A stretch of 64,000 nucleotides of DNA from Candidatus Falkowbacteria bacterium (GCA_003518055.1 DOZJ01000006.1:136912-200911); one strand, 5' to 3'; numbered from the stretch's first letter, positions 2,797 to 58,803 are shown. Notes: generated by a model from the letters alone, not told the origin. A program made the numbers and translations.

Positions 2797-3486
2797 CTAG
2801 CCGCGGCGCTGGACGGTCGGCTCTCGGTGGGAGTCCGCGAGGAGCGTCCGGAGGTTGACCGTGGGCGGGTTGAGCTCGCGCTGCTTCTGGTACTCCTCCT
2901 CCTCGGCGTCCTTGCGGGCGCGGAAGCAGGTGGGGCAGCAGATCGGCTCGCACTTGGCCTTCTCGCGGAGCTCGGTCGGGGTGAGGGTGTTCTGGAAGCT
3001 GCCCGGGCAGTCGTCGGCCTCGTGCACCTCGCACACGTGGGTGTGGAGAGCCTTGAACTTCAGGTTCTTGCGGCCGCCGAGCGCGATGTTGCCGCTGGCG
3101 TTGTCCTCGACGACCACCATCTTGGTGGTGGGGACGACGTTCGGCGTCTCGATCAGGTTGACGTAGCGGACGTCGCCGTGCGCCGTGGACTTCTCGTAGA
3201 CACGGACCGTGCAGACCGCGGTGCGGCCGGCGAGCAGCTTGCCGAAGAGGAAGTAGTTGATCACCAGCGTCTTGCCGGTCTTTTCCAGCAGATGGCGGGT
3301 CAGGCCGACCCACTGGAGATGCGGCGGGATCGGGGTGCCGTCGGGCAGGGTGGCGTCGGTGACGACGCGCACCGGCTGCTGATTGGGCATCAGCTCGGGG
3401 ACGCTGATCTGAACGGCGTGCTTCTCGTAGATGAGGTCGTGAGGGATGTTCTCGGGGTAGGTGTAGGGGCTCTGGAGCTCGCTCAT
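2797..3486 (-). CDS. Hypothetical Cys-rich protein in a high-GC (~65%) island
   Basis: Of three overlapping ORFs in the GC-rich block, this frame has protein-like composition, RBS GGAGGA before the ATG (MSELQSPYT...), its own terminator and a consensus promoter. C-terminal CxxxxC/CCPTC cysteine cluster. The other two frames are Ala/Arg/Gly/Leu-rich antisense artefacts. Confidence 0.55.
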   Translation of the reverse strand: MSELQSPYTYPENIPHDLIYEKHAVQISVPELMPNQQPVRVVTDATLPDGTPIPPHLQWVGLTRHLLEKTGKTLVINYFLFGKLLAGRTAVCTVRVYEKSTAHGDVRYVNLIETPNVVPTTKMVVVEDNASGNIALGGRKNLKFKALHTHVCEVHEADDCPGSFQNTLTPTELREKAKCEPICCPTCFRARKDAEEEEYQKQRELNPPTVNLRTLLADSHREPTVQRRG

Positions 3487-3564
3487 CGGATCCTCCGTAA
3501 AATGGCCCGTTTGGGCGTCATGTGGCGGCAATGCGCCGCGGGGATGGAATGTACAGTATTAAGC

Positions 3565-3593
3565 ATTATATCATATTTTTGACAAAAAGTCAA
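3565..3593 (-). promoter_or_regulatory. Sigma70-type promoter TTGACT-17-TATAAT for the GC-rich gene
   Basis: Minus-strand reading TTGACTttttgtcaaaaatatgaTATAAT. Lies directly downstream of repeat copy L. Confidence 0.5.
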
Positions 3594-3692: not shown

Positions 3693-3962
3693 TCAGACTC
3701 GCCATTTGAGTCGATTGAATCTTGAGTGATTCGAGCGAAAGATAAAGAGTTCCCAGCTAAATACCAGCAGCGGTGGATTGATTAGCCAGATAGCTTTACT
3801 GCTGACGGCAAAGGCAATGACATCGATGACTCCGAGTAGAATTACGTTGGCCCAATAGAAGGTGAAAAAGGTGTTTTGGGTCCAGTGATAGGCGAGAGCC
3901 AGCTTCAACCAAACCACAAACAGAACTACAAGAAACAAATGCAGGCCAAGTAGAATGGTCAT
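3693..3962 (-). CDS. Small integral membrane protein A, with basic/aromatic C-terminal tail
   Basis: 89 aa, 2-3 predicted TM helices. RBS GGAGGAACC before the ATG. Consensus promoter and perfect terminator. Paralogous to the 5678..5932 product. Confidence 0.5.
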   Translation of the reverse strand: MTILLGLHLFLVVLFVVWLKLALAYHWTQNTFFTFYWANVILLGVIDVIAFAVSSKAIWLINPPLLVFSWELFIFRSNHSRFNRLKWRV

Positions 3963-4002
3963 GGTTCCTCCATCGTGGTTTAACTGTGGAATTGTATATT
4001 AT

Positions 4003-4031
4003 ATTATATCAATAATATTTTCTTTTGTCAA
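4003..4031 (-). promoter_or_regulatory. Consensus sigma70 promoter TTGACA-17-TATAAT for membrane protein A
   Basis: Minus-strand reading TTGACAaaagaaaatattattgaTATAAT. Confidence 0.55.
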
Positions 4032-4172: not shown

Positions 4173-4218
4173 TGTTAAATAATGAAGAATGTTCATGTAC
4201 TAAATAACAGTCGGAAGG

Positions 4219-4246
4219 TTACCCTTCGAGAACCTCAGGGTGACAA
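4219..4246. repeat. Hairpin repeat H1 (CCCTTCGAG-N-CTCAGGGTGACAA)
   Basis: Same about 28-nt imperfect-hairpin motif recurs at 4708-4737 (inside dus) and, reverse-complemented, at 49881-49910. Confidence 0.55.
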
Positions 4247-4274
4247 GAAGTAAAGGTGGTACAGAAAATGTTTT

Positions 4275-5243
4275 ATGAAAACTTTTTGGGACAAACTACC
4301 GCGGCCGTTTTTGGCCTTGGCGCCGATGGCGGGAATTTCAGATTCGGCTTTTAGACAGATGTGCTTGAAATACGGCGCTGATGTTGTTTATACTGAAATG
4401 ACGGCATTTGATGCGCTGCATTATGGCAGCGCAAAGACGCTTGAAATGTTGAAATTCAATAAACGCAAAGAGCGACCGATTGTTATTCAGCTTTTTGGTA
4501 AACGGCCGGAGACTGTTAAAAAAGCCGTGGAGATGGTTGAAACGGCCGGATTTGACGGGATTGATATTAATTTTGGCTGTCCGGCCAGAAAAGTGGTAGC
4601 GCATGGCGGCGGCATTACACTCCTGCGAGATTTGAATTTGGCGCGCGAGATGGTGCAAGCGGTCACAGAAGCGGCGACGGTTCCGGTGTCAGTTAAAACC
4701 AGAACGTCTATCCTTCGAGTGACTCAGGTTGACAAAAGGGTAACTGTGTTTGATTTTATTGATAAAATAAAAGATTTGCCGGTAAAAGCGCTCATGATTC
4801 ATGGGCGCAGTTATGAGGGTGGATTTTCTGCTCCGATTGATTTTGACGTGATTAAACAAGTAAAGGAAACATTTAACGGCGTGGTCATCGGCAATGGCGG
4901 CATCAATACGCCGGAGCAAGCGATGGAGATGTTGAATAAAACCGGTGTTGACGGTTTGGGTTTGGCGCGAGGTCTTTATGGTCGACCGTATTTGTTTCAG
5001 CAAGCCAAGGAATATTTAAATAAAGGAAAATACAAAGAAGTAACATTAAAACAAATAAAAAAAATTGCGGTTGAGCACACGGAGTTATTGGCGGAATTGA
5101 AGGGAGAGTCAGGGATGTTTGAAATTCGGAAACATTTGTTGTGGTATTTCCGAGGGTTTCCAAATGCAGCGGAATGGCGGCAAAAGTTGGTCCGGGTGGA
5201 AAGTGTGGATGAGGTGGAGGGAATATTAAAAACGATGGTGTAA
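4275..5243 (+). CDS. dus: tRNA-dihydrouridine synthase (Dus family)
   Basis: LAPMAGISD...QLFG...GFDGIDINFGCP...IHGRS motifs of FMN-dependent Dus enzymes. 322 aa. Contains in-frame hairpin-repeat copy H2. Confidence 0.8.
   Translation: MKTFWDKLPRPFLALAPMAGISDSAFRQMCLKYGADVVYTEMTAFDALHYGSAKTLEMLKFNKRKERPIVIQLFGKRPETVKKAVEMVETAGFDGIDINFGCPARKVVAHGGGITLLRDLNLAREMVQAVTEAATVPVSVKTRTSILRVTQVDKRVTVFDFIDKIKDLPVKALMIHGRSYEGGFSAPIDFDVIKQVKETFNGVVIGNGGINTPEQAMEMLNKTGVDGLGLARGLYGRPYLFQQAKEYLNKGKYKEVTLKQIKKIAVEHTELLAELKGESGMFEIRKHLLWYFRGFPNAAEWRQKLVRVESVDEVEGILKTMV
4708..4737. repeat. Hairpin repeat H2 inside the dus coding region
   Basis: ATCCTTCGAGTGACTCAGGTTGACAAAAG. Matches H1 and H3. Sits in frame (encodes ...SILRVTQVDKR...). 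Confidence 0.45.
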
Positions 5244-15857: not shown

Positions 15858-15886
15858 TTGACATTTTTGGTAAAATGTGATATCAT
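15858..15886 (+). promoter_or_regulatory. Promoter TTGACA-17-TATCAT for the GC-rich Zn-ribbon gene
   Basis: TTGACAtttttggtaaaatgtgaTATCAT, followed by RBS GAAGGGAGGGGA. Confidence 0.5.
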
Positions 15887-15936: not shown

Positions 15937-16476
15937 ATGAACGGCGGAATCGAGATTCTGTGTCCGAAGTGCGGCAGCTACGCCCACAATGGGCGGGACA
16001 ACTTCTGCGCCTCCTGTGGGCACCGGTTCGAGGCCAAGGACCGCGTCAAGCGGATCGGCGAGCTGCGCGACGAGGGAGTCTATCGGATTTCGATGGAAGC
16101 CTTCGAGGCAGAGTGTAACTGTGAGCCGCGGGAAGGTGGCTACCTCGACAGCTTGGTTGGCCGACATGCCACAGCCGTCCTGATCAAGCTGAAGTATCCG
16201 CGAGAGACCCACCCATACCTCTGCGGCTACTGTGGCAAGCGCGTCTCGGATTCGACCGACGGCAAGTGCGACACCTGCGCTCAGCAGCTGTGGGTGGAGC
16301 GGACCGACGAGTCCGAAGCCCGCTGGTGCTGGAACATGGAGTCGTACGGCACAGCGGTCAACTGTACCTGCGGCCTCGAGGTCTGGACCGACATGCCAGA
16401 GTGCCCCAAGTGCCGCAAGCCGATCGACGAGATCGTCGAGGCGGCATCGGAAGATGACGCAGACGACGACGATTAG
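15937..16476 (+). CDS. High-GC (~62%) multi-zinc-ribbon protein with acidic C-terminal tail
   Basis: Five or more CxxC pairs (CPKCGS...CASCGH, CGYCGK, CDTC, CTCG, CPKC) and a terminal EDDADDDD. Codon usage is G/C-rich at third positions, unlike its neighbours. Has an AT-rich host-type promoter and RBS. Confidence 0.55.
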   Translation: MNGGIEILCPKCGSYAHNGRDNFCASCGHRFEAKDRVKRIGELRDEGVYRISMEAFEAECNCEPREGGYLDSLVGRHATAVLIKLKYPRETHPYLCGYCGKRVSDSTDGKCDTCAQQLWVERTDESEARWCWNMESYGTAVNCTCGLEVWTDMPECPKCRKPIDEIVEAASEDDADDDD

Positions 16477-24601: not shown

Positions 24602-24630
24602 TTGACAATTTGTGAATTATCTGATATCAT
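24602..24630 (+). promoter_or_regulatory. Promoter TTGACA-17-TATCAT
   Basis: TTGACAatttgtgaattatctgaTATCAT. Same -10 variant as at 15881. Confidence 0.4.
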
Positions 24631-44494: not shown

Positions 44495-44842
44495 ATGCTA
44501 GCGGGTGTAGCGACTCTTGGAGCCCTCGTTATTGTTTTTTCCTTGATTTGTTTTGTTTTTATTATCGGGGCGAATACCTCGACCAATTCTCCAAGGGCGG
44601 CTTTGGGGGCTTTGGCCATGATTTCTTGGGTGATTACTACCTCTTTGCTGATTATTTTCTTTATTTTTGTCGTGGGCAGCGGTTCAATGGTAGTGGTTCT
44701 TCTGGGTTGTTTGGCGTTGTTTTTTCAGCTGGTAATGGCTTTGAGTATGTTTGGGGGTGAACTCGCTATCGCTTTGTCCAGTATTATTTCTTTGGGCATG
44801 AATATTTCGTTTTATGTGGTTACTTTGGCTAATTTGAGTTAA
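44495..44842 (+). CDS. Small polytopic membrane protein
   Basis: Own TTGACA-17-TATATT promoter, RBS AAGAAGGGAGG, and terminator AACAG..CTGTTTTTTT. Confidence 0.45.
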   Translation: MLAGVATLGALVIVFSLICFVFIIGANTSTNSPRAALGALAMISWVITTSLLIIFFIFVVGSGSMVVVLLGCLALFFQLVMALSMFGGELAIALSSIISLGMNISFYVVTLANLS

Positions 44843-45024
44843 AACAGTATAAAAGATGCTGTTTTTTTGATGGCAGACAGATGTCGGTATTTTATTTTGA
44901 AAGAATTGTTTATGATCACGGCGTTAACAGTAGTGTTCGGATTGTCTTGACAAACATGATAAAAAGAATAAGGTAAACTGTTAAGTTCCTTTAAAATTTT
45001 CCACGAAAACAAGGAGGACGAGCC

Positions 45025-45813
45025 ATGCTGTGGAACATAGTAATTTTAGTTTGCGCACTGGTAGCCATTTTGACCGGATTGGGTTTTATCATTTCCCACT
45101 TATTGGCGAGCGGCCGCGGTGAGCAGGCGGATACGGTTTATCGAGTTAGTCGTGGTATTCATGGTTTTGCGCGAAAAGTTGTCGGTATGGGCCGTGATCG
45201 TTTCGGAGTCAATCAGGATGCCGGAAAGTCGGGCCTTAAAAATATGGTGCTATTAACATTGTGGGATATGGTGGAGAAGAATTTGGACCAATGGAATCCG
45301 GCTTTGCAGGTGAAACGTGACTTTGAACAGCTGATTCAATCTACAATGCAGCTAATTGTCGAGGCGCAGATCAACGCGGAAAGATTAGGATCAGCTGAAG
45401 CTCAGGAGTATTTGGTTGAATGCCTGGAAGATTTGCGGACAATAGCGGCGAGACTTCCCCAATTGGAATCAATCGTTGAAACGAAAAATCAGATTATCCA
45501 AATATGGCGTGACGTTGAACTAATCGCCAAGGCGCAGAGTTTTAATGATAGCAACAAGTCTGAAACTGATTCTGCTTCAAGCGCCGGGTCGGCCAAAAGT
45601 TATTATGAGATTTTGGGGGTTGCCTCGGGCGCGACTTTAGAAGAAATTAAGCACGCGTATAAAAATCTAGCGGCGTTGTATCATCCGGACAAGTACGCTC
45701 ATTTGGCTGATGATATGAGGCAGGAGGCTGAACGGCGATTCCGAGAAATTAATTTGGCTCACTCTGTTTTGTCGGATAGACAGAAAAGAAGCGCTTATGA
45801 CCAATCACTTTGA
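45025..45813 (+). CDS. Membrane-anchored J-domain protein
   Basis: N-terminal TM helix, coiled-coil middle, and a C-terminal J domain with HPD (YYEILGV...YHPDKY...RSAYD). Confidence 0.6.
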   Translation: MLWNIVILVCALVAILTGLGFIISHLLASGRGEQADTVYRVSRGIHGFARKVVGMGRDRFGVNQDAGKSGLKNMVLLTLWDMVEKNLDQWNPALQVKRDFEQLIQSTMQLIVEAQINAERLGSAEAQEYLVECLEDLRTIAARLPQLESIVETKNQIIQIWRDVELIAKAQSFNDSNKSETDSASSAGSAKSYYEILGVASGATLEEIKHAYKNLAALYHPDKYAHLADDMRQEAERRFREINLAHSVLSDRQKRSAYDQSL

Positions 45814-45822
45814 CCAAGGAGG

Positions 45823-46617
45823 ATGCTGATGACTGATGATAAACTAGAGCGTGTTGCCTCGGTTGATATTGGACGGTTGCGGCGAAAAAGAATGGCGGAA
45901 CAAACTGTTGGCGCACTTGTGGCTGGAAAAAACATGGTTCCAGATTTGCAATTGGTGGTGATGGCTGATATTACCGGCAGTATGTATAAATACTTTGATG
46001 AAGTAAGGCAAAAATTTGCTGAAATTGTGGCGGCGGTAAAAAAAGAAGTGCCCCGATCACAATTCGCGGTTTTTGCTTATCGTAATCATGGTGATGAAGA
46101 TCGATATGATCAGATATTTTACGCGTCACCATTATCGAGTGATGAAGAAGCAGTTGCGAAGTTTATTCGTGACATTAAACGCGGCGGCGGTGGATCGGAC
46201 GCGCTTACTTGCATGGAAGATTGTCTGCGGGAAGCAAATGGTTTGACGTGGCAGTCAAAAGCGCAGAAAGCGATAGTGATTGTTGGCGACATGCCTCCTC
46301 ATGGAGTGTTGGATTCGCTGGATAAATGTTATCGAGGGATTGATTATCGAGCGGAGATTTCTGCGTTGAAGAATAATGGTGTCCGGATTTATCCGGTTTT
46401 TTGCGGCGACAATCAGCGAGTGAAGGATTTTTATCAATCAATGGCGGTCCAAACCGGCGGCCGATTGATGGATTTGGCGCATATTGGTGAAATTGTTACA
46501 TTACTGGTCGCTGTTTGCATGAAAGAAACAGGCAAGTTGGATAAGTTTTTAGCCGATTTACGGGCGCAAAAACAGCTTAGTCCCGGTCAGGAACGGATTA
46601 TCAAAGCTTTGTTGTGA
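45823..46617 (+). CDS. von Willebrand factor A (vWA) domain protein
   Basis: MIDAS DxTGS (VVMADITGSM), GGGSDA and VIVGDMPPHG motifs. Start is 10 nt after the J-protein stop, with RBS GGAGGA. Confidence 0.65.
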   Translation: MLMTDDKLERVASVDIGRLRRKRMAEQTVGALVAGKNMVPDLQLVVMADITGSMYKYFDEVRQKFAEIVAAVKKEVPRSQFAVFAYRNHGDEDRYDQIFYASPLSSDEEAVAKFIRDIKRGGGGSDALTCMEDCLREANGLTWQSKAQKAIVIVGDMPPHGVLDSLDKCYRGIDYRAEISALKNNGVRIYPVFCGDNQRVKDFYQSMAVQTGGRLMDLAHIGEIVTLLVAVCMKETGKLDKFLADLRAQKQLSPGQERIIKALL

Positions 46618-46764
46618 TAGCGGATAGCTTAAAGAGTTATCCGTTTTTGTTGTTTTAACTATAACTACGGAAGTTAGACCGTGTTATAAAATATATCAGA
46701 ATAGTATTTTATTGTATTTTTTATCTTATTTTAGCTAAATTTCTGTAGTTATAGTTAAAGCCAA

Positions 46765-46793
46765 TTGACAAATATAAAAAACTATGCTGTAAT
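46765..46793 (+). promoter_or_regulatory. Promoter-like TTGACA-17-TGTAAT upstream of the GC-rich noncoding element
   Basis: TTGACAaatataaaaaactatgcTGTAAT. Confidence 0.35.
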
Positions 46794-46828
46794 GGACTAT
46801 TGACAATCAAGATTGGTTTTATTGACGT

Positions 46829-46959
46829 GGGCAGCGCGATTAGTCGCAATTAGGTTACTGTTCGTGAAGTTAGTTTGTTAACTTCGCGCTGCCCAGTTCT
46901 TTTGAGACCAACACCCTGAAAGGAAGTAAAGATTTGATTCTTTCTACTGGGTGTTTTTT
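46829..46959 (+). terminator. Two consecutive strong stem-loops, each followed by a T-run
   Basis: GGGCAGCGCGA...TCGCGCTGCCC (11-bp perfect stem with a nested hairpin) followed by AGTTCTTTT. AACACCC...GGGTGTT followed by TTTTT. Confidence 0.45.
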
Positions 46960-46967
46960 GAAAATTC

Positions 46968-47763
46968 AGGAGCGCCTCCTGGATGGCCCCCACTGCAAAA
47001 TTGATGGGCCGAAATTCATAGGCGTTCCAATCATAGTAATGCCGGAGCATTGGAGAGTCTACCCTGGAGGGTGACTGGTCAGGAATGACCACCAGTGTTT
47101 CCGGCTTGTTGTTCCCCCACGCGGATGCCCTGCGCGCTCGTTCTGAGCCGCCGGTCGTAAGGGGGATGCGACGGAGCTAAGGCTCTTGTCCGCAATCGCT
47201 TCGGGGCGGCATTCATGTCGTTCGGCGGCGGGTTTCGCGGAGATTTGAGCCCGAGCGCTCCGTATTGGGAGAGAGGGTTTTGGCTACCTGGCGTCGAAAG
47301 ATGCCAAAGGATAAGCTGACAGGGGGCAAATCTGTCAGTGGAAATCCGGGGGTACCTAGACCTTCGGAGTGGTGGCTGATCCCACCATCCAAGCCACGTA
47401 CCGGCACAAGCATGCCTACGATTTGGCGGGCCGGTATGGTCGTGTTGAGTGGCAACAATCCCTGATTGTGGCGTATCGGCAGCAGGTCTGTCGGCGTTCA
47501 GTGGGGTGAGCCGCGGCGACATTAGTTGCCAAAGAGGTTGGCGAAGGCTTAGTAGGATGGGTCTTCGCTGAACGCGCCCTCTGGCAGCAAAAAGACAGCA
47601 CAGGCGATTGGGTAGCGCAAACCCGGACGTCTGACGCTCCTCTAGGATAAAATTGGGGATTGCGGTGAAGATGAGAACGTGCCCCCGTTTGATTCCGAGC
47701 CTCTTTCCCCGCGTTTATAAATTTAATCCCGCTGGCGTCACTACGTCTGCGGGCTTTGTTTTT
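46968..47763 (+). ncRNA. Candidate large structured noncoding RNA (about 800 nt, GC about 60%, class unknown)
   Basis: No protein-like ORF on either strand (only Arg/Pro-rich artefacts). Many local hairpins, including UUCG-capped (47356-47372; cgcUUCGggg around 47215) and GNRA-capped (GGCGTC-GAAA-GATGCC, 47290-47305) stems. 3' end has stem CCCGC..GCGGG followed by a T-run. Strand is inferred. Confidence 0.45.
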
Positions 47764-47952
47764 AAAAAAAATATTTGTTTTGTGAATGTAGGTAGAGGGT
47801 TGAAGGGCAACTCCTTTTTTTGTCCACATTGCTAAACGAGTTTTTTGTGGTAAATTGTAGATATCATGGGAAATTTATAGAAAAAAAGAAATTGATTGAA
47901 ATTTATTGGTTGACCATCTAAATTTCCATTTATTTCAAATAATTTCATTATT

Positions 47953-49779
47953 ATGAATAGTGATAGCAAAATAAAAATATTACCACCGGAATTGGTGAAT
48001 CAGATTGCCGCTGGTGAGGTGGTTGAACGGCCGGCTTCGGTGGTAAAGGAATTGGTGGAGAATTGTCTGGATGCTGGGGGGCGGAATATTTCGATTGAAC
48101 TTACTAACGGTGGGGTTGATTTGATTCGAATTACGGATGATGGTTCGGGAATGTCGCCGGAAGACGCTCGGTTATCAATCGCTCAACACGCTACCAGTAA
48201 AATAAAAACTATTGATGATTTGTTCAGTGTCGTGACCATGGGATTTCGCGGTGAGGCTTTGGCCAGTATTTCTTCGGTCAGTCAGTTCAAATTAACCACA
48301 AAACAAAAAGGCCGGATGGCCGCGACGCAGCTGAGTGTATTTGATAATCAGATTGAAACAGTGGAGGTCGGCGCGCCGGAGGGGACTACAATTGAAGTGA
48401 AAAATCTTTTTTATAACATTCCGGCGCGTAAAAAATATTTGAAGACGGCGGTGACGGAATATAATCATATTGTGGATTTGTTTCTGTACTATGTTTTGCT
48501 TCACAAACAGATCAATTGGACGCTCAGCCACAATGGAAAAGTCGTGTATCAATTTACGGCGATAGATGATCACCAAGGTCGAATTTTTGAAGTTTTGGGT
48601 CGAGAGGTGGCGGAGAATTTACTTGATGTTGATTATAATGGCGTGGAATTCAAAATCAAGGGTTTTATCGGCCGGCCGCAGATTGCCAGAAACAATCGCA
48701 AGCTGCAGTATTTGTTTGTGAATAATCGACCGGTAGATGAATATGTAATCGCCAAGCAGATTAAAGATGCTTTTGCCACGTTGATTCCGCATACTTTATA
48801 TCCGGTTTATATTTTATCGCTTGACATTGAGCCGAGTGCGGTGGATGTGAATGTTCATCCACGAAAAATGGAAGTGCGATTTTCCGAGCCGCAAAAGATT
48901 TATAAAATGATATATCGGGTGGTGGCGGAGACACTCGACAAGAATGAATTGACCAAACAGATTCATGATTTTGAGTCTACGTCCGAAGTGATTTTCAAGC
49001 AGCGAGAAAGGTTTCAGGGGGCCAATCAGATGCCGGTTCAAACTAACTGGCGCGGTGGTGAAACCGGTTTAACCGGACAATTTAATTCCCAGATTAGTCA
49101 AAAGTTTGATTTTGTTCCACAGGGGAATCACAATCAGGTTGTTTTGGGCGCAGTTGAAAGTGAAGATTCAAGTATAACTAATCACAGGGGATTTAAAGTA
49201 ATTGGTCAGGTTAATCGGTCATATATTGTGGTTGAAACAAATAGCGGACTCAAAATATATGATCAGCACGCTTCAAGTGAGCGGGTACAGTTTGAGAAGT
49301 TAAAGCAAGACTGGCAAGCGGGGCATGTCAGTCAACAGACATTGCTTTTACCCGAGCAGATTGTTTTTCCGCCGCAGGAAATTCATGTAGTGGAAGGGAA
49401 TTCAGAGTTTTTACAGATTATGGGATTCACGCTGGAGCCTTTTGGCGGTAATACCTACATTTTAAGCGCTGTCCCGCAGCTTTTAATTGACAAAAACGTC
49501 AAAGAAGCGCTGAAAGAGTTGGTCGGGTTATTGCTTGAATCACCAAATTCGGTCGGTAATAATCAGGAAGATATGCCTGATTCGGTTCGCCGCGTCATCA
49601 ATATGATGAGCTGTCGTAGTGCCGTCAAATTTGGAGATGAATTATCTGTACCGGGAATGTATGCTTTGATTGAAGCGCTTGAAGCCAATCCCAGCCAATA
49701 TACCTGTGTTCACGGCCGGCCATGCGTGATAGAATATAAGTATGAAGAATTGGAGAAGCTATTTAAGAGAAGGAACTAG
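47953..49779 (+). CDS. mutL: DNA mismatch repair protein MutL
   Basis: GHKL ATPase motifs (ELVENCLDAG, DDGSGM, GFRGEAL). C-terminal dimerisation domain. 608 aa. Confidence 0.9.
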   Translation: MNSDSKIKILPPELVNQIAAGEVVERPASVVKELVENCLDAGGRNISIELTNGGVDLIRITDDGSGMSPEDARLSIAQHATSKIKTIDDLFSVVTMGFRGEALASISSVSQFKLTTKQKGRMAATQLSVFDNQIETVEVGAPEGTTIEVKNLFYNIPARKKYLKTAVTEYNHIVDLFLYYVLLHKQINWTLSHNGKVVYQFTAIDDHQGRIFEVLGREVAENLLDVDYNGVEFKIKGFIGRPQIARNNRKLQYLFVNNRPVDEYVIAKQIKDAFATLIPHTLYPVYILSLDIEPSAVDVNVHPRKMEVRFSEPQKIYKMIYRVVAETLDKNELTKQIHDFESTSEVIFKQRERFQGANQMPVQTNWRGGETGLTGQFNSQISQKFDFVPQGNHNQVVLGAVESEDSSITNHRGFKVIGQVNRSYIVVETNSGLKIYDQHASSERVQFEKLKQDWQAGHVSQQTLLLPEQIVFPPQEIHVVEGNSEFLQIMGFTLEPFGGNTYILSAVPQLLIDKNVKEALKELVGLLLESPNSVGNNQEDMPDSVRRVINMMSCRSAVKFGDELSVPGMYALIEALEANPSQYTCVHGRPCVIEYKYEELEKLFKRRN

Positions 49780-58615: not shown

Positions 58616-58803
58616 TTGACGAAATATTTATCTTTTGCTAAAATATAAATACAAATTAATTCCGCAGACTGCAAGTGTCGATAGACTTAAATATCTTGCA
58701 TAGGAACGAATAAGAGCTTACGGTCTTTGAGCCGTTAGTTTTTAGAAGATAAGTCTGCGGGGAACCGGAGATATTTTTTTACTAATTATTCATTTTTAAC
58801 AAT
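58616..58803 (+). promoter_or_regulatory. rplJ promoter (TTGACG-17-TAAAAT) and structured 5' leader (L10-leader-like autoregulatory element)
   Basis: About 150-nt untranslated leader enclosed by a long-range pairing CCGCAGAC (58662-58669) / GTCTGCGG (58753-58760), consistent with an L10(L12)4-binding leader. Confidence 0.45.

Follow-up and report, generated by a model that had tools for sequence, protein, structure and literature searches.

The stretch analysed here (hereafter the window) comprises 64,000 nucleotides (nt) from a Candidatus Falkowbacteria bacterium (GCA_003518055.1 DOZJ01000006.1:136912-200911). Directly upstream of its mutL gene (47953-49779, plus strand) lies a GC-rich segment, 46968-47763, that is non-coding, structured on the plus strand and without counterpart among known RNA families. 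We propose that it belongs to the gene for an undescribed structured non-coding RNA (ncRNA) of one clade of Candidatus Falkowbacteria-like bacteria of the candidate phyla radiation (CPR), and that this RNA is stable and acts in trans, a reading to which we give a probability slightly above one half (roughly 0.55). The evidence centres on a core of about 150 nt (47290-47438), composed of five hairpins and the conserved, purine-rich linkers AAAGGAUAA, GGAAAU and UCCAAGCCA. Compensatory changes maintain the five helices in four lineages, and in each of them the RNA is located beside mutL. Among the many structured ncRNAs of bacteria that are orphans, it represents a new family.

Composition and coding potential of the segment

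The GC content of the segment is 57.4%, compared with 42.4% across the whole window, which is densely coding. An earlier, sequence-only reading had described the segment as about 60% GC and non-coding; the first value was slightly high, while the second statement is confirmed by the absence of codon periodicity and of protein homologs. The power of the three-nucleotide GC period is only 1.9 in 46968-47763, as opposed to 77 and 24 in two coding islands of high GC content elsewhere in the window, and to 26 and 13 in the neighbouring genes for MutL and for a vWA protein, respectively. Protein homology searches covered the longest open reading frames (ORFs) of the segment. A 147-amino acid (aa) ORF had no homologs among 1.84 billion representatives searched with phmmer, a word-index search of 5.8 billion proteins with a 137-aa ORF returned this sequence alone, and no Pfam match was obtained for any of the Arg/Pro-rich artefact ORFs.

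These results bear on the suggestion, also made in the sequence-only reading, that the segment might be what is left of a GC-rich protein gene gained by horizontal transfer and since decayed; in that case, the hairpins would be incidental. Foreign-looking GC-rich genes do exist in the window (2797-3531 and 15937-16476), and one of them has a moderately negative sense-strand folding z-score of -3.7. Nevertheless, lack of periodicity, of Pfam matches and of homologs to the longest ORFs, together with the compensatory changes that keep five helices in four lineages, essentially excludes this explanation.

The plus strand of the segment folds with a minimum free energy (MFE) of -352 kcal/mol and a z-score of -7.3, while the z-score of the minus strand is -1.55. 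Rerunning the folding with 16 shuffles gave -4.4 and -0.8, respectively, and values for the two GC-rich coding islands are between -0.3 and -3.7. Structure exceeding chance expectation is therefore observed on the plus strand only, and the structured RNA postulated earlier is genuine.

Five hairpins conserved in four lineages

All core modules are described here on the plus strand, in 5' to 3' order, as hairpins A to E and the linkers between them. Hairpin A (GGCGUC-GAAA-GAUGCC, 47290-47305) has six pairs; 100% of its cells are paired in the four sequences, and three pairs are changed on both sides. It is followed by the linker AAAGGAUAA (47306-47314), in which GAUAA is invariant in all four lineages. 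Hairpin B (GCUGACAG / CUGUCAGU, 47315-47339) consists of eight pairs, again 100% paired, five of them changed on both sides, and has a semi-conserved loop of the form AGGGnAnUU. The linker GGAAAU (47340-47345), with invariant AAAU, leads to hairpin C (CCGGGGGU / ACCUUCGG, 47346-47367), where eight pairs are 96.8% paired and three are changed on both sides. Hairpin D (G-UGGUGG / CCACCA-U, 47369-47388) has six pairs, five changed on both sides. The linker CCAAGCCA (47389-47396) carries the motif GCCAC, conserved in 4/4 lineages and continuing into hairpin E (CGUACCGGC / GCCGGUAUG, 47397-47438), which has nine pairs, seven of them changed on both sides. The base of this last stem is conserved, while its interior is variable in length. 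The linker motifs GAUAA, AAAU and GCCAC are thus invariant or nearly so.

In the alignment of four sequences, 97.8% of cells are paired, a value somewhat inflated by an alignment that the model fitted to the structure, and 23 of 37 pairs are changed on both sides. None of 500 shuffles matched the alignment in any measure of pairing or covariation. In controls in which pairing partners were slid by 1-3 columns, 38-48% of cells were paired and at most six pairs were changed on both sides. RNAalifold applied to the alignment independently gives the same five helices; it agrees on hairpins A, B and E, lengthens hairpin C by the invariant pair U47345-A47368, and adds an invariant G-U closing pair to hairpin D. 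Since hairpin D is placed directly against hairpin C, without a linker, coaxial stacking of the two is likely, and the U-A and G-U pairs added by RNAalifold bring them into direct contact. In addition, 15 cells are occupied by G-U pairs, which would be A-C mismatches on the opposite strand, and this favours an RNA on the plus strand over a DNA palindrome. The core forms five hairpins and is under selection for structure. Homologs and compensatory changes, the two features generally expected of a conserved structured ncRNA, both appear in the compared sequences.

Three hairpins drawn in the sequence-only reading, GGCGTC-GAAA-GATGCC (47290-47305), CTGACAG/CTGTCAG (47315-47339) and UGGUGG/CCACCA (47370-47387), are now supported by covariation. 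The cUUCGg at 47362-47367, interpreted there as a tetraloop, turned out to be the 3' strand of the covariation-supported stem of hairpin C, and the predicted fold does not place the UUCG motifs near 47200 and 47221 in hairpin loops.

Two further helices were considered. An extra helix closing hairpin B, GGAU (47309-47312) with AUCC (47344-47347), is found in the MFE structures of the window and of its nearest relative (L004) and covaries in L019, but it is broken in L018 and competes with hairpin C. A long-range helix closing the whole core, GGCU (47282-47285) with AGCC (47392-47395), was rejected, as it is not consistently possible in L018 and L019.

Homologs of the core

Relatives used in the comparison are labelled L004, L005, L006, L009, L014, L015, L016, L018, L019, L020 and L021. 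The nearest other species, L004 (Falkowbacteria CG10, MutL identity 70%), was the only one retrieved in the MutL search of genome contigs. It shows the same layout of J-domain gene, vWA gene, GC-rich element and mutL. The parts of the two RNAs that can be aligned are the promoter and leader, a block of about 125 nt (47275-47398, 69% identity) and the terminator region. Compensatory changes seen in this block led to a wider search for homologs. Because both global and local MAFFT alignments of whole RNAs misalign outside the anchor blocks, a window-based covariance model was built from the window sequence alone and five hand-drawn hairpins, and homologs were aligned to it with Infernal.

The window-only model gave a single match each in L004 (E 3e-14), L018 (8e-6) and L019 (1e-4), always on the strand of mutL and upstream of it, and detected nothing further in 163 kb. 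A model of all four sequences, made from a trimmed alignment in which loops were cut and gaps replaced with N, gave E values of 1e-12 to 4e-27. In L018 and L019 the core is directly upstream of mutL, as it is in the window and in L004; MutL identities to the window protein are 54% and 53%, so that carriers of the core span 53-70%. The collection of homologs proposed in the sequence-only reading accordingly yielded three relatives, with the covariation described above and a consistent RNAalifold structure. The reading had also raised linkage to neighbouring genes: adjacency to mutL is observed in 4/4 carriers, while the J-domain and vWA genes accompany the RNA only in the window and L004. In every lineage, GC content exceeds that of the genome as a whole by 13-23 points; such an excess is usual for stable RNAs in AT-rich genomes.

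An exact-motif scan (AAAGGATAA..AAATCCGG..GGAGTGG) found nothing in viral contigs and only two metagenome contigs, identical to L004. This pattern was too strict, as homologs found later have AGAAGAUAA/UGAUAA and AAAUCU. The MutL protein of the window carries a Candidatus Falkowbacteria annotation, and the element itself is present at 100% identity in three independent groundwater assemblies. Four independent short contigs (L014, L016, L018 and L019) end at the RNA gene or up to about 170 nt upstream of it, L018 within the gene; these ends suggest that, immediately before the locus, strains vary or assembly is difficult.

Comparison with known RNA families

No family of Rfam 15 (4227 models) reached its gathering score in the element. 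At E values up to 10, a cmscan of 46600-47950 gave five matches and no more (12-20 bits, E 3-7), all at chance level and outside the core, and results were equally negative for the loci of L004, L005, L006, L014, L016, L018 and L019. Covariance models of group I and II introns, SRP RNA, 6S RNA and HEARO had no match in the element, and no description of such an RNA was found in the literature. The earlier statement that the element belongs to no known family is in agreement with these results.

A resemblance to the giant ornate RNAs of the OLE, ROOL and GOLLD type (RF01071, RF03087, RF01998) had been suggested on the basis of size and composition. The RNA indeed shares with them a large size (0.6-1 kb), GC richness, a high density of hairpins, organization as a unit of its own, and the way it stands out in an AT-rich genome. 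However, OLE, ROOL and GOLLD conserve most of their 500-800 nt, while only about 150 nt are conserved here. The phage or tRNA surroundings of ROOL and GOLLD are missing, no OLE-associated protein genes are found at the locus, and the RNA is known from only four lineages of one CPR clade. The three covariance models had no match in the window, L004, L018 or L019, and the roughly 800 nt outside the core are peculiar to each lineage, resisting alignment even where MutL is 70% identical. The "giant ornate" description overstates conservation; a small conserved core with fast-evolving GC-rich expansions is a better one. The structured element of about 800 nt noticed originally is real, although conservation beyond the closest relative is restricted to the core.

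The raiA motif RNA and comparable orphan ncRNAs of medium size offer another parallel, being units of 110-160 nt with several hairpins and conserved single-stranded linkers, transcribed on their own beside one particular gene. They differ in lacking any similarity in sequence or model, and in phylum and neighbour gene; furthermore, the core described here is flanked on both sides by variable structured RNA, hundreds of nucleotides in total.

It can also be asked if the element is a universal RNA (RNase P, tmRNA, SRP or 6S RNA) that has diverged strongly and taken up insertions, or an ORF-less group I or II intron. CPR rRNAs carry large insertions. RNase P RNA (type A/B) is likewise a GC-rich stable RNA in AT-rich genomes, and GGAAAUCCGG, within a GGAAA(N)UCCGG context, resembles the 5' strand of P4, GGAAAGUCCGG, with GGCUUAG located downstream. 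Against this, no Rfam model exceeded chance on the window or its homologs, even at E values up to 10 in short searches, and ARAGORN did not report a tmRNA. The GGAAAU motif is a linker between local hairpins in 4/4 lineages, GGAAAUCC being a linker that runs into the base of hairpin C and not a strand of a long-range P4 helix. The GGCUUAG motif (47548) is not conserved in homologs, leaving no conserved 3' partner for P4. Its size, the arrangement of its elements and its patchy occurrence also speak against RNase P. Close relatives devoid of the RNA would be unexpected for an essential universal RNA. The resemblance to RNase P is coincidental, as the sequence-only reading had supposed, and we consider identity with any of these universal RNAs or introns to be essentially excluded.

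Likeness by eye to a T-box, to domain V of group II introns and to the "GGAUAAC" motif of 16S/23S rRNA was dismissed, since no Rfam match stands behind any of them. A sponge of CsrA type was rejected as well: GGA of AAAGGAUAA is not conserved (GAAGAUAA in L019, GUGAUAA in L018), and the linkers are each unique and not repeated.

Predicted transcription unit

Delimited by a predicted promoter and a predicted intrinsic terminator, the RNA gene would be about 965 nt long (46797-47762, plus strand) and co-oriented with mutL. The promoter, TTGACA-17-TGTAAT with an extended -10 TG (46766-46794), differs by one mismatch from TTGACA-N14-TGNTATAAT and predicts a start at about 46797. The ortholog in L004 (3863-3891) and the L019 site (36-64) match the consensus in 12/12 positions and also have TG. 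The promoter and leader (46764-46825) are 87% identical to those of L004 over 62 nt. Near-consensus extended -10 promoters (TTGACA-N14-TGNTATAAT, up to 2 mismatches) are found at 15 sites in the 64 kb, compared with 0.8 expected; examples, in addition to the RNA promoter, are 4003-4031 (minus), 15858-15886 (plus) and 24602-24630 (plus). Promoters of the host organism appear to be unusually close to consensus. Because similar promoters reflect this genome-wide consensus, they are no evidence of a common origin of RNAs in the mutS-mutL spacer.

The 5' domain (46797-46910, plus strand) comprises the conserved leader and a helix UGGUUUUA/UGAGACCA (46814-46821 with 46903-46910) around a long hairpin (46828-46895). 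Its helices are of high probability, with perfect arms of 12 nt. The same layout is found in L004 (3911-3920/4011-4020 around 3925-4005) with a different hairpin sequence; changes in the outer helix are one-sided only. Immediately downstream, the hairpin ACACCC...GGGUGU followed by U6 (46911-46960, plus strand) resembles a terminator; it may act as an attenuator within the RNA or have a structural role. A hairpin with a short U-run occupies the matching place in L004 (4024-4090), and no counterpart exists between the promoter and the core of L019.

The RNA is predicted to end at the intrinsic terminator CCCGC-GGCGU...ACGUC-GCGGG followed by UUUGUUUUU (47728-47762, plus strand). Its ortholog in L004 (4701-4728 and a T-run) has a different stem sequence, and terminators also close the RNA in L018 (611-637) and L019. 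A promoter and an intrinsic terminator of its own are hence predicted on the strand that folds, and these two signals, like the two upstream stem-loops with T-runs, are present as the sequence-only reading described them. A second terminator-like hairpin with T7 (47797-47820, plus strand) is located between the RNA gene and mutL. It is followed by a weak promoter-like site, TTGAAA-17-TAAATT (47896-47924, plus strand), which is a consensus match only (9/12) and is separated by 28 nt from the start codon of mutL. Similar sites are found ahead of mutL in L018 and L019.

This arrangement is relevant for the alternative of mutL having a long leader or attenuator that works in cis: transcription from the strong promoter would pass through the structured RNA, terminators would set the level of read-through, and the core would be the sensor of a ligand or protein. 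As in riboswitch and attenuator leaders, a core of aptamer size is co-oriented with one conserved gene and directly upstream of it in 4/4 carriers, and terminator-like hairpins are arranged in tandem within and after the RNA. Unrelated GC-rich RNAs hold the same position in L005, L006, L014 and L016, and in L014 the T-run of the terminator reaches the start of mutL, leaving no space for a separate promoter. On the other hand, 355-550 nt of variable sequence with one to three terminators separate the core from the mutL start, unlike in known riboswitch expression platforms, and no known class matches. In the window, L018 and L019, mutL has a promoter-like site shortly before it, and relatives with orphan ORFs or nothing in this place still retain mutL. 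We know of no leader of 600-960 nt for a repair gene. The RNA is set apart from mutL by one or two terminators and a promoter-like site, which favours its independence; constant adjacency to mutL and the terminator abutting its start in L014 keep the leader model alive, although as a rather improbable one.

Variable periphery of the core

The core is embedded in GC-rich sequence on both sides. The variable 5' periphery (46968-47279, plus strand) is predicted to fold into four hairpin domains (46969-47028, 47041-47105, 47113-47166 and 47171-47263), and the variable 3' periphery (47439-47727, plus strand) has predicted hairpins at 47442-47522, 47525-47588 and 47601-47633. These stretches of about 310 nt 5' and 290 nt 3' of the core could not be aligned even to L004, in spite of 70% identity of MutL. 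Hairpins of the peripheries differ among lineages in number and length, and the spacing from promoter or start to the core ranges from about 490 nt in the window to about 95 nt in L019. The 9-mer AACGUGCCC at 47676-47684 is also found in L004 (4522-4530) and L018 (156-164), thus in three of the four RNAs. Two of them have it downstream of the core and the third has it upstream, and its significance is marginal; it could be due to chance or represent a movable tertiary or binding motif.

The mutS-mutL slot

Content of the spacer between mutS and mutL differs even within the MutL clade of the window, whose members are 55-61% identical to each other. In L005 and L006, this slot contains other segments that are GC-rich, free of ORFs and strongly structured (z -11 to -16), each provided with a promoter and a terminator. 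Very long, near-perfect hairpins (z -8 to -16) were noted there at 4590-5100 and 5260-5960 in L005 and at 4210-4500 and 4760-5450 in L006. Core models run with filters off did not detect the spacer RNAs of L005 and L006, the sequences of which are unrelated to the window RNA. A third type of GC-rich RNA is located upstream of mutL in the neighbouring clade, in L014 (118-728) and L016 (200-670). It contains a repeated hairpin module of 80 nt, which has an internal motif that does not vary (GGCACCUGUC) and a GGUUCC(C/U)UUC tail, and in which 7 of 23 pairs covary among three copies; the module has no match in the window. The idea of a single family for all mutS-mutL spacer RNAs was abandoned, because the model of the L014/L016 module (R1) and that of the core (R3) show no cross-detection with filters off.

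Small ORFs without Pfam families fill the slot in L009 (3711-5928), L020 (2434-3812) and L021 (3724-4874), the sole exception being a weak DUF3792 match, below the cut-off, of a 59-aa ORF in L021. In L015 the slot is an AT-rich gap. Given its filling with small ORFs in L009, L020 and L021, the slot looks like a hot spot for lineage-specific genes.

Such turnover invites the explanation that the RNA is cargo of a fast-changing mutS-mutL island, that is, a selfish, mobile or conflict-related RNA (for example, a component of defence or addiction) that was acquired horizontally and is being replaced. Close lineages have in the slot the window-type RNA, one of two or three further types of RNA, small orphan ORFs or no insert at all, and the core is patchy in one MutL clade, with 4/7 members carrying it. 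Contigs of L014, L016, L018 and L019 break at or just upstream of the RNA, and the window contains two GC-rich orphan coding cassettes with promoters of their own. However, repeats, target-site duplications, integrase, transposase or reverse transcriptase were not found nearby, the segment is single-copy in the 64 kb, no match to it exists in phage, plasmid and viral-contig collections, and the neighbouring proteins have no PADLOC match. Persistence of the core at one locus in lineages with MutL identities of 53-57% fits vertical descent with losses. While slot turnover and patchy distribution keep a mobile or conflict-related origin alive, we regard it as unlikely.

Lineages whose MutL proteins are 50-60% identical have three or more GC-rich RNA types in this one slot, none of them related to another. 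We tentatively put forward, as a broader possibility clearly less probable than an even chance, that the mutS-mutL spacer of Falkowbacteria-like bacteria may be a nursery of large, highly expressed structured RNAs, with rapid origination and exchange, and that the core may represent a new CPR-specific RNA class with an activity of its own, as a ligand- or protein-binding fold or a ribozyme. If true, such a nursery would be notable for genomes of about 1 Mb with little spare DNA.

A trans-acting RNA as the preferred explanation

According to the explanation we prefer, a stable RNA acting in trans, the core would fold compactly, with hairpins C and D stacked end to end, and the linkers GAUAA, AAAU and GCCAC would make tertiary contacts or form a binding surface. 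A protein or a small ligand may recognise this unit, and the RNA would function as a stable and abundant molecule. The flanking GC-rich hairpins would be fast-evolving expansions that stabilise or decorate the core, and the position by mutL would reflect inheritance of the variable mutS-mutL slot, not regulation of mutL.

Several observations weigh against this explanation. Pair counts come from four lineages and from an alignment fitted to the structure. The core is missing from L005, L006 and L021 of the same MutL clade, and is accordingly dispensable or replaceable. In the window, the -10 hexamer TGTAAT (46789-46794) has G at the normally invariant second position, where L004, L005 and L019 have TATAAT at the corresponding site, which may mean weaker expression in the species of the window. 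The promoter is separated from the GC-rich body by two hairpins resembling terminators (46828-46900 and 46911-46960), so that the body might be poorly transcribed, or the first 165 nt might constitute a small RNA of their own. Both ends of the RNA and its possible processing are predictions from sequence, and the partner protein or ligand is postulated.

CPR bacteria (Patescibacteria) make up a large share of bacterial diversity and have tiny genomes; to our knowledge, almost none of their ncRNAs have been studied experimentally. An RNA gene of 0.6-1 kb with its own predicted promoter, kept in a streamlined genome, offers a testable way into CPR-specific RNA biology, with a modest practical yield until a function or partner is found. 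The pattern of the slot may outweigh the single family in importance, as it suggests unusually fast birth and turnover of structured RNAs.

Neighbouring genes and other features of the window

Genes around the RNA are arranged on the plus strand in the order mutS, small membrane protein, J-domain protein, vWA protein, RNA and mutL. The three protein genes between mutS and the RNA (44495-46617) are shared with L004 only, and none of their products has a PADLOC match. In L021, a 115-aa ORF is found right after mutS, at the position of the membrane protein.

The first of the two GC-rich coding islands (2797-3531, minus strand) contains a 244-aa ORF with 66% GC, rising to 94% at third codon positions, and a TTGACT-17-TATAAT promoter of its own at 3565-3593 (minus strand). 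The ORF has no match in Pfam, PHROG or PADLOC and only a self-match among 5.8 billion proteins, which makes it an orphan gene of foreign appearance. The second island (15937-16476, plus strand, 62% GC) encodes a 179-aa protein with several zinc-ribbon motifs, for which weak Pfam matches to DZR and Zn_ribbon, all below the cut-off, were obtained; it is preceded by a consensus promoter at 15858-15886. ARAGORN reported no tRNA or tmRNA gene in the 64 kb. The ribosomal protein L10 leader (RF00557, 56.4 bits), located at 58644-58788 on the plus strand, is the sole Rfam family identified in the window.

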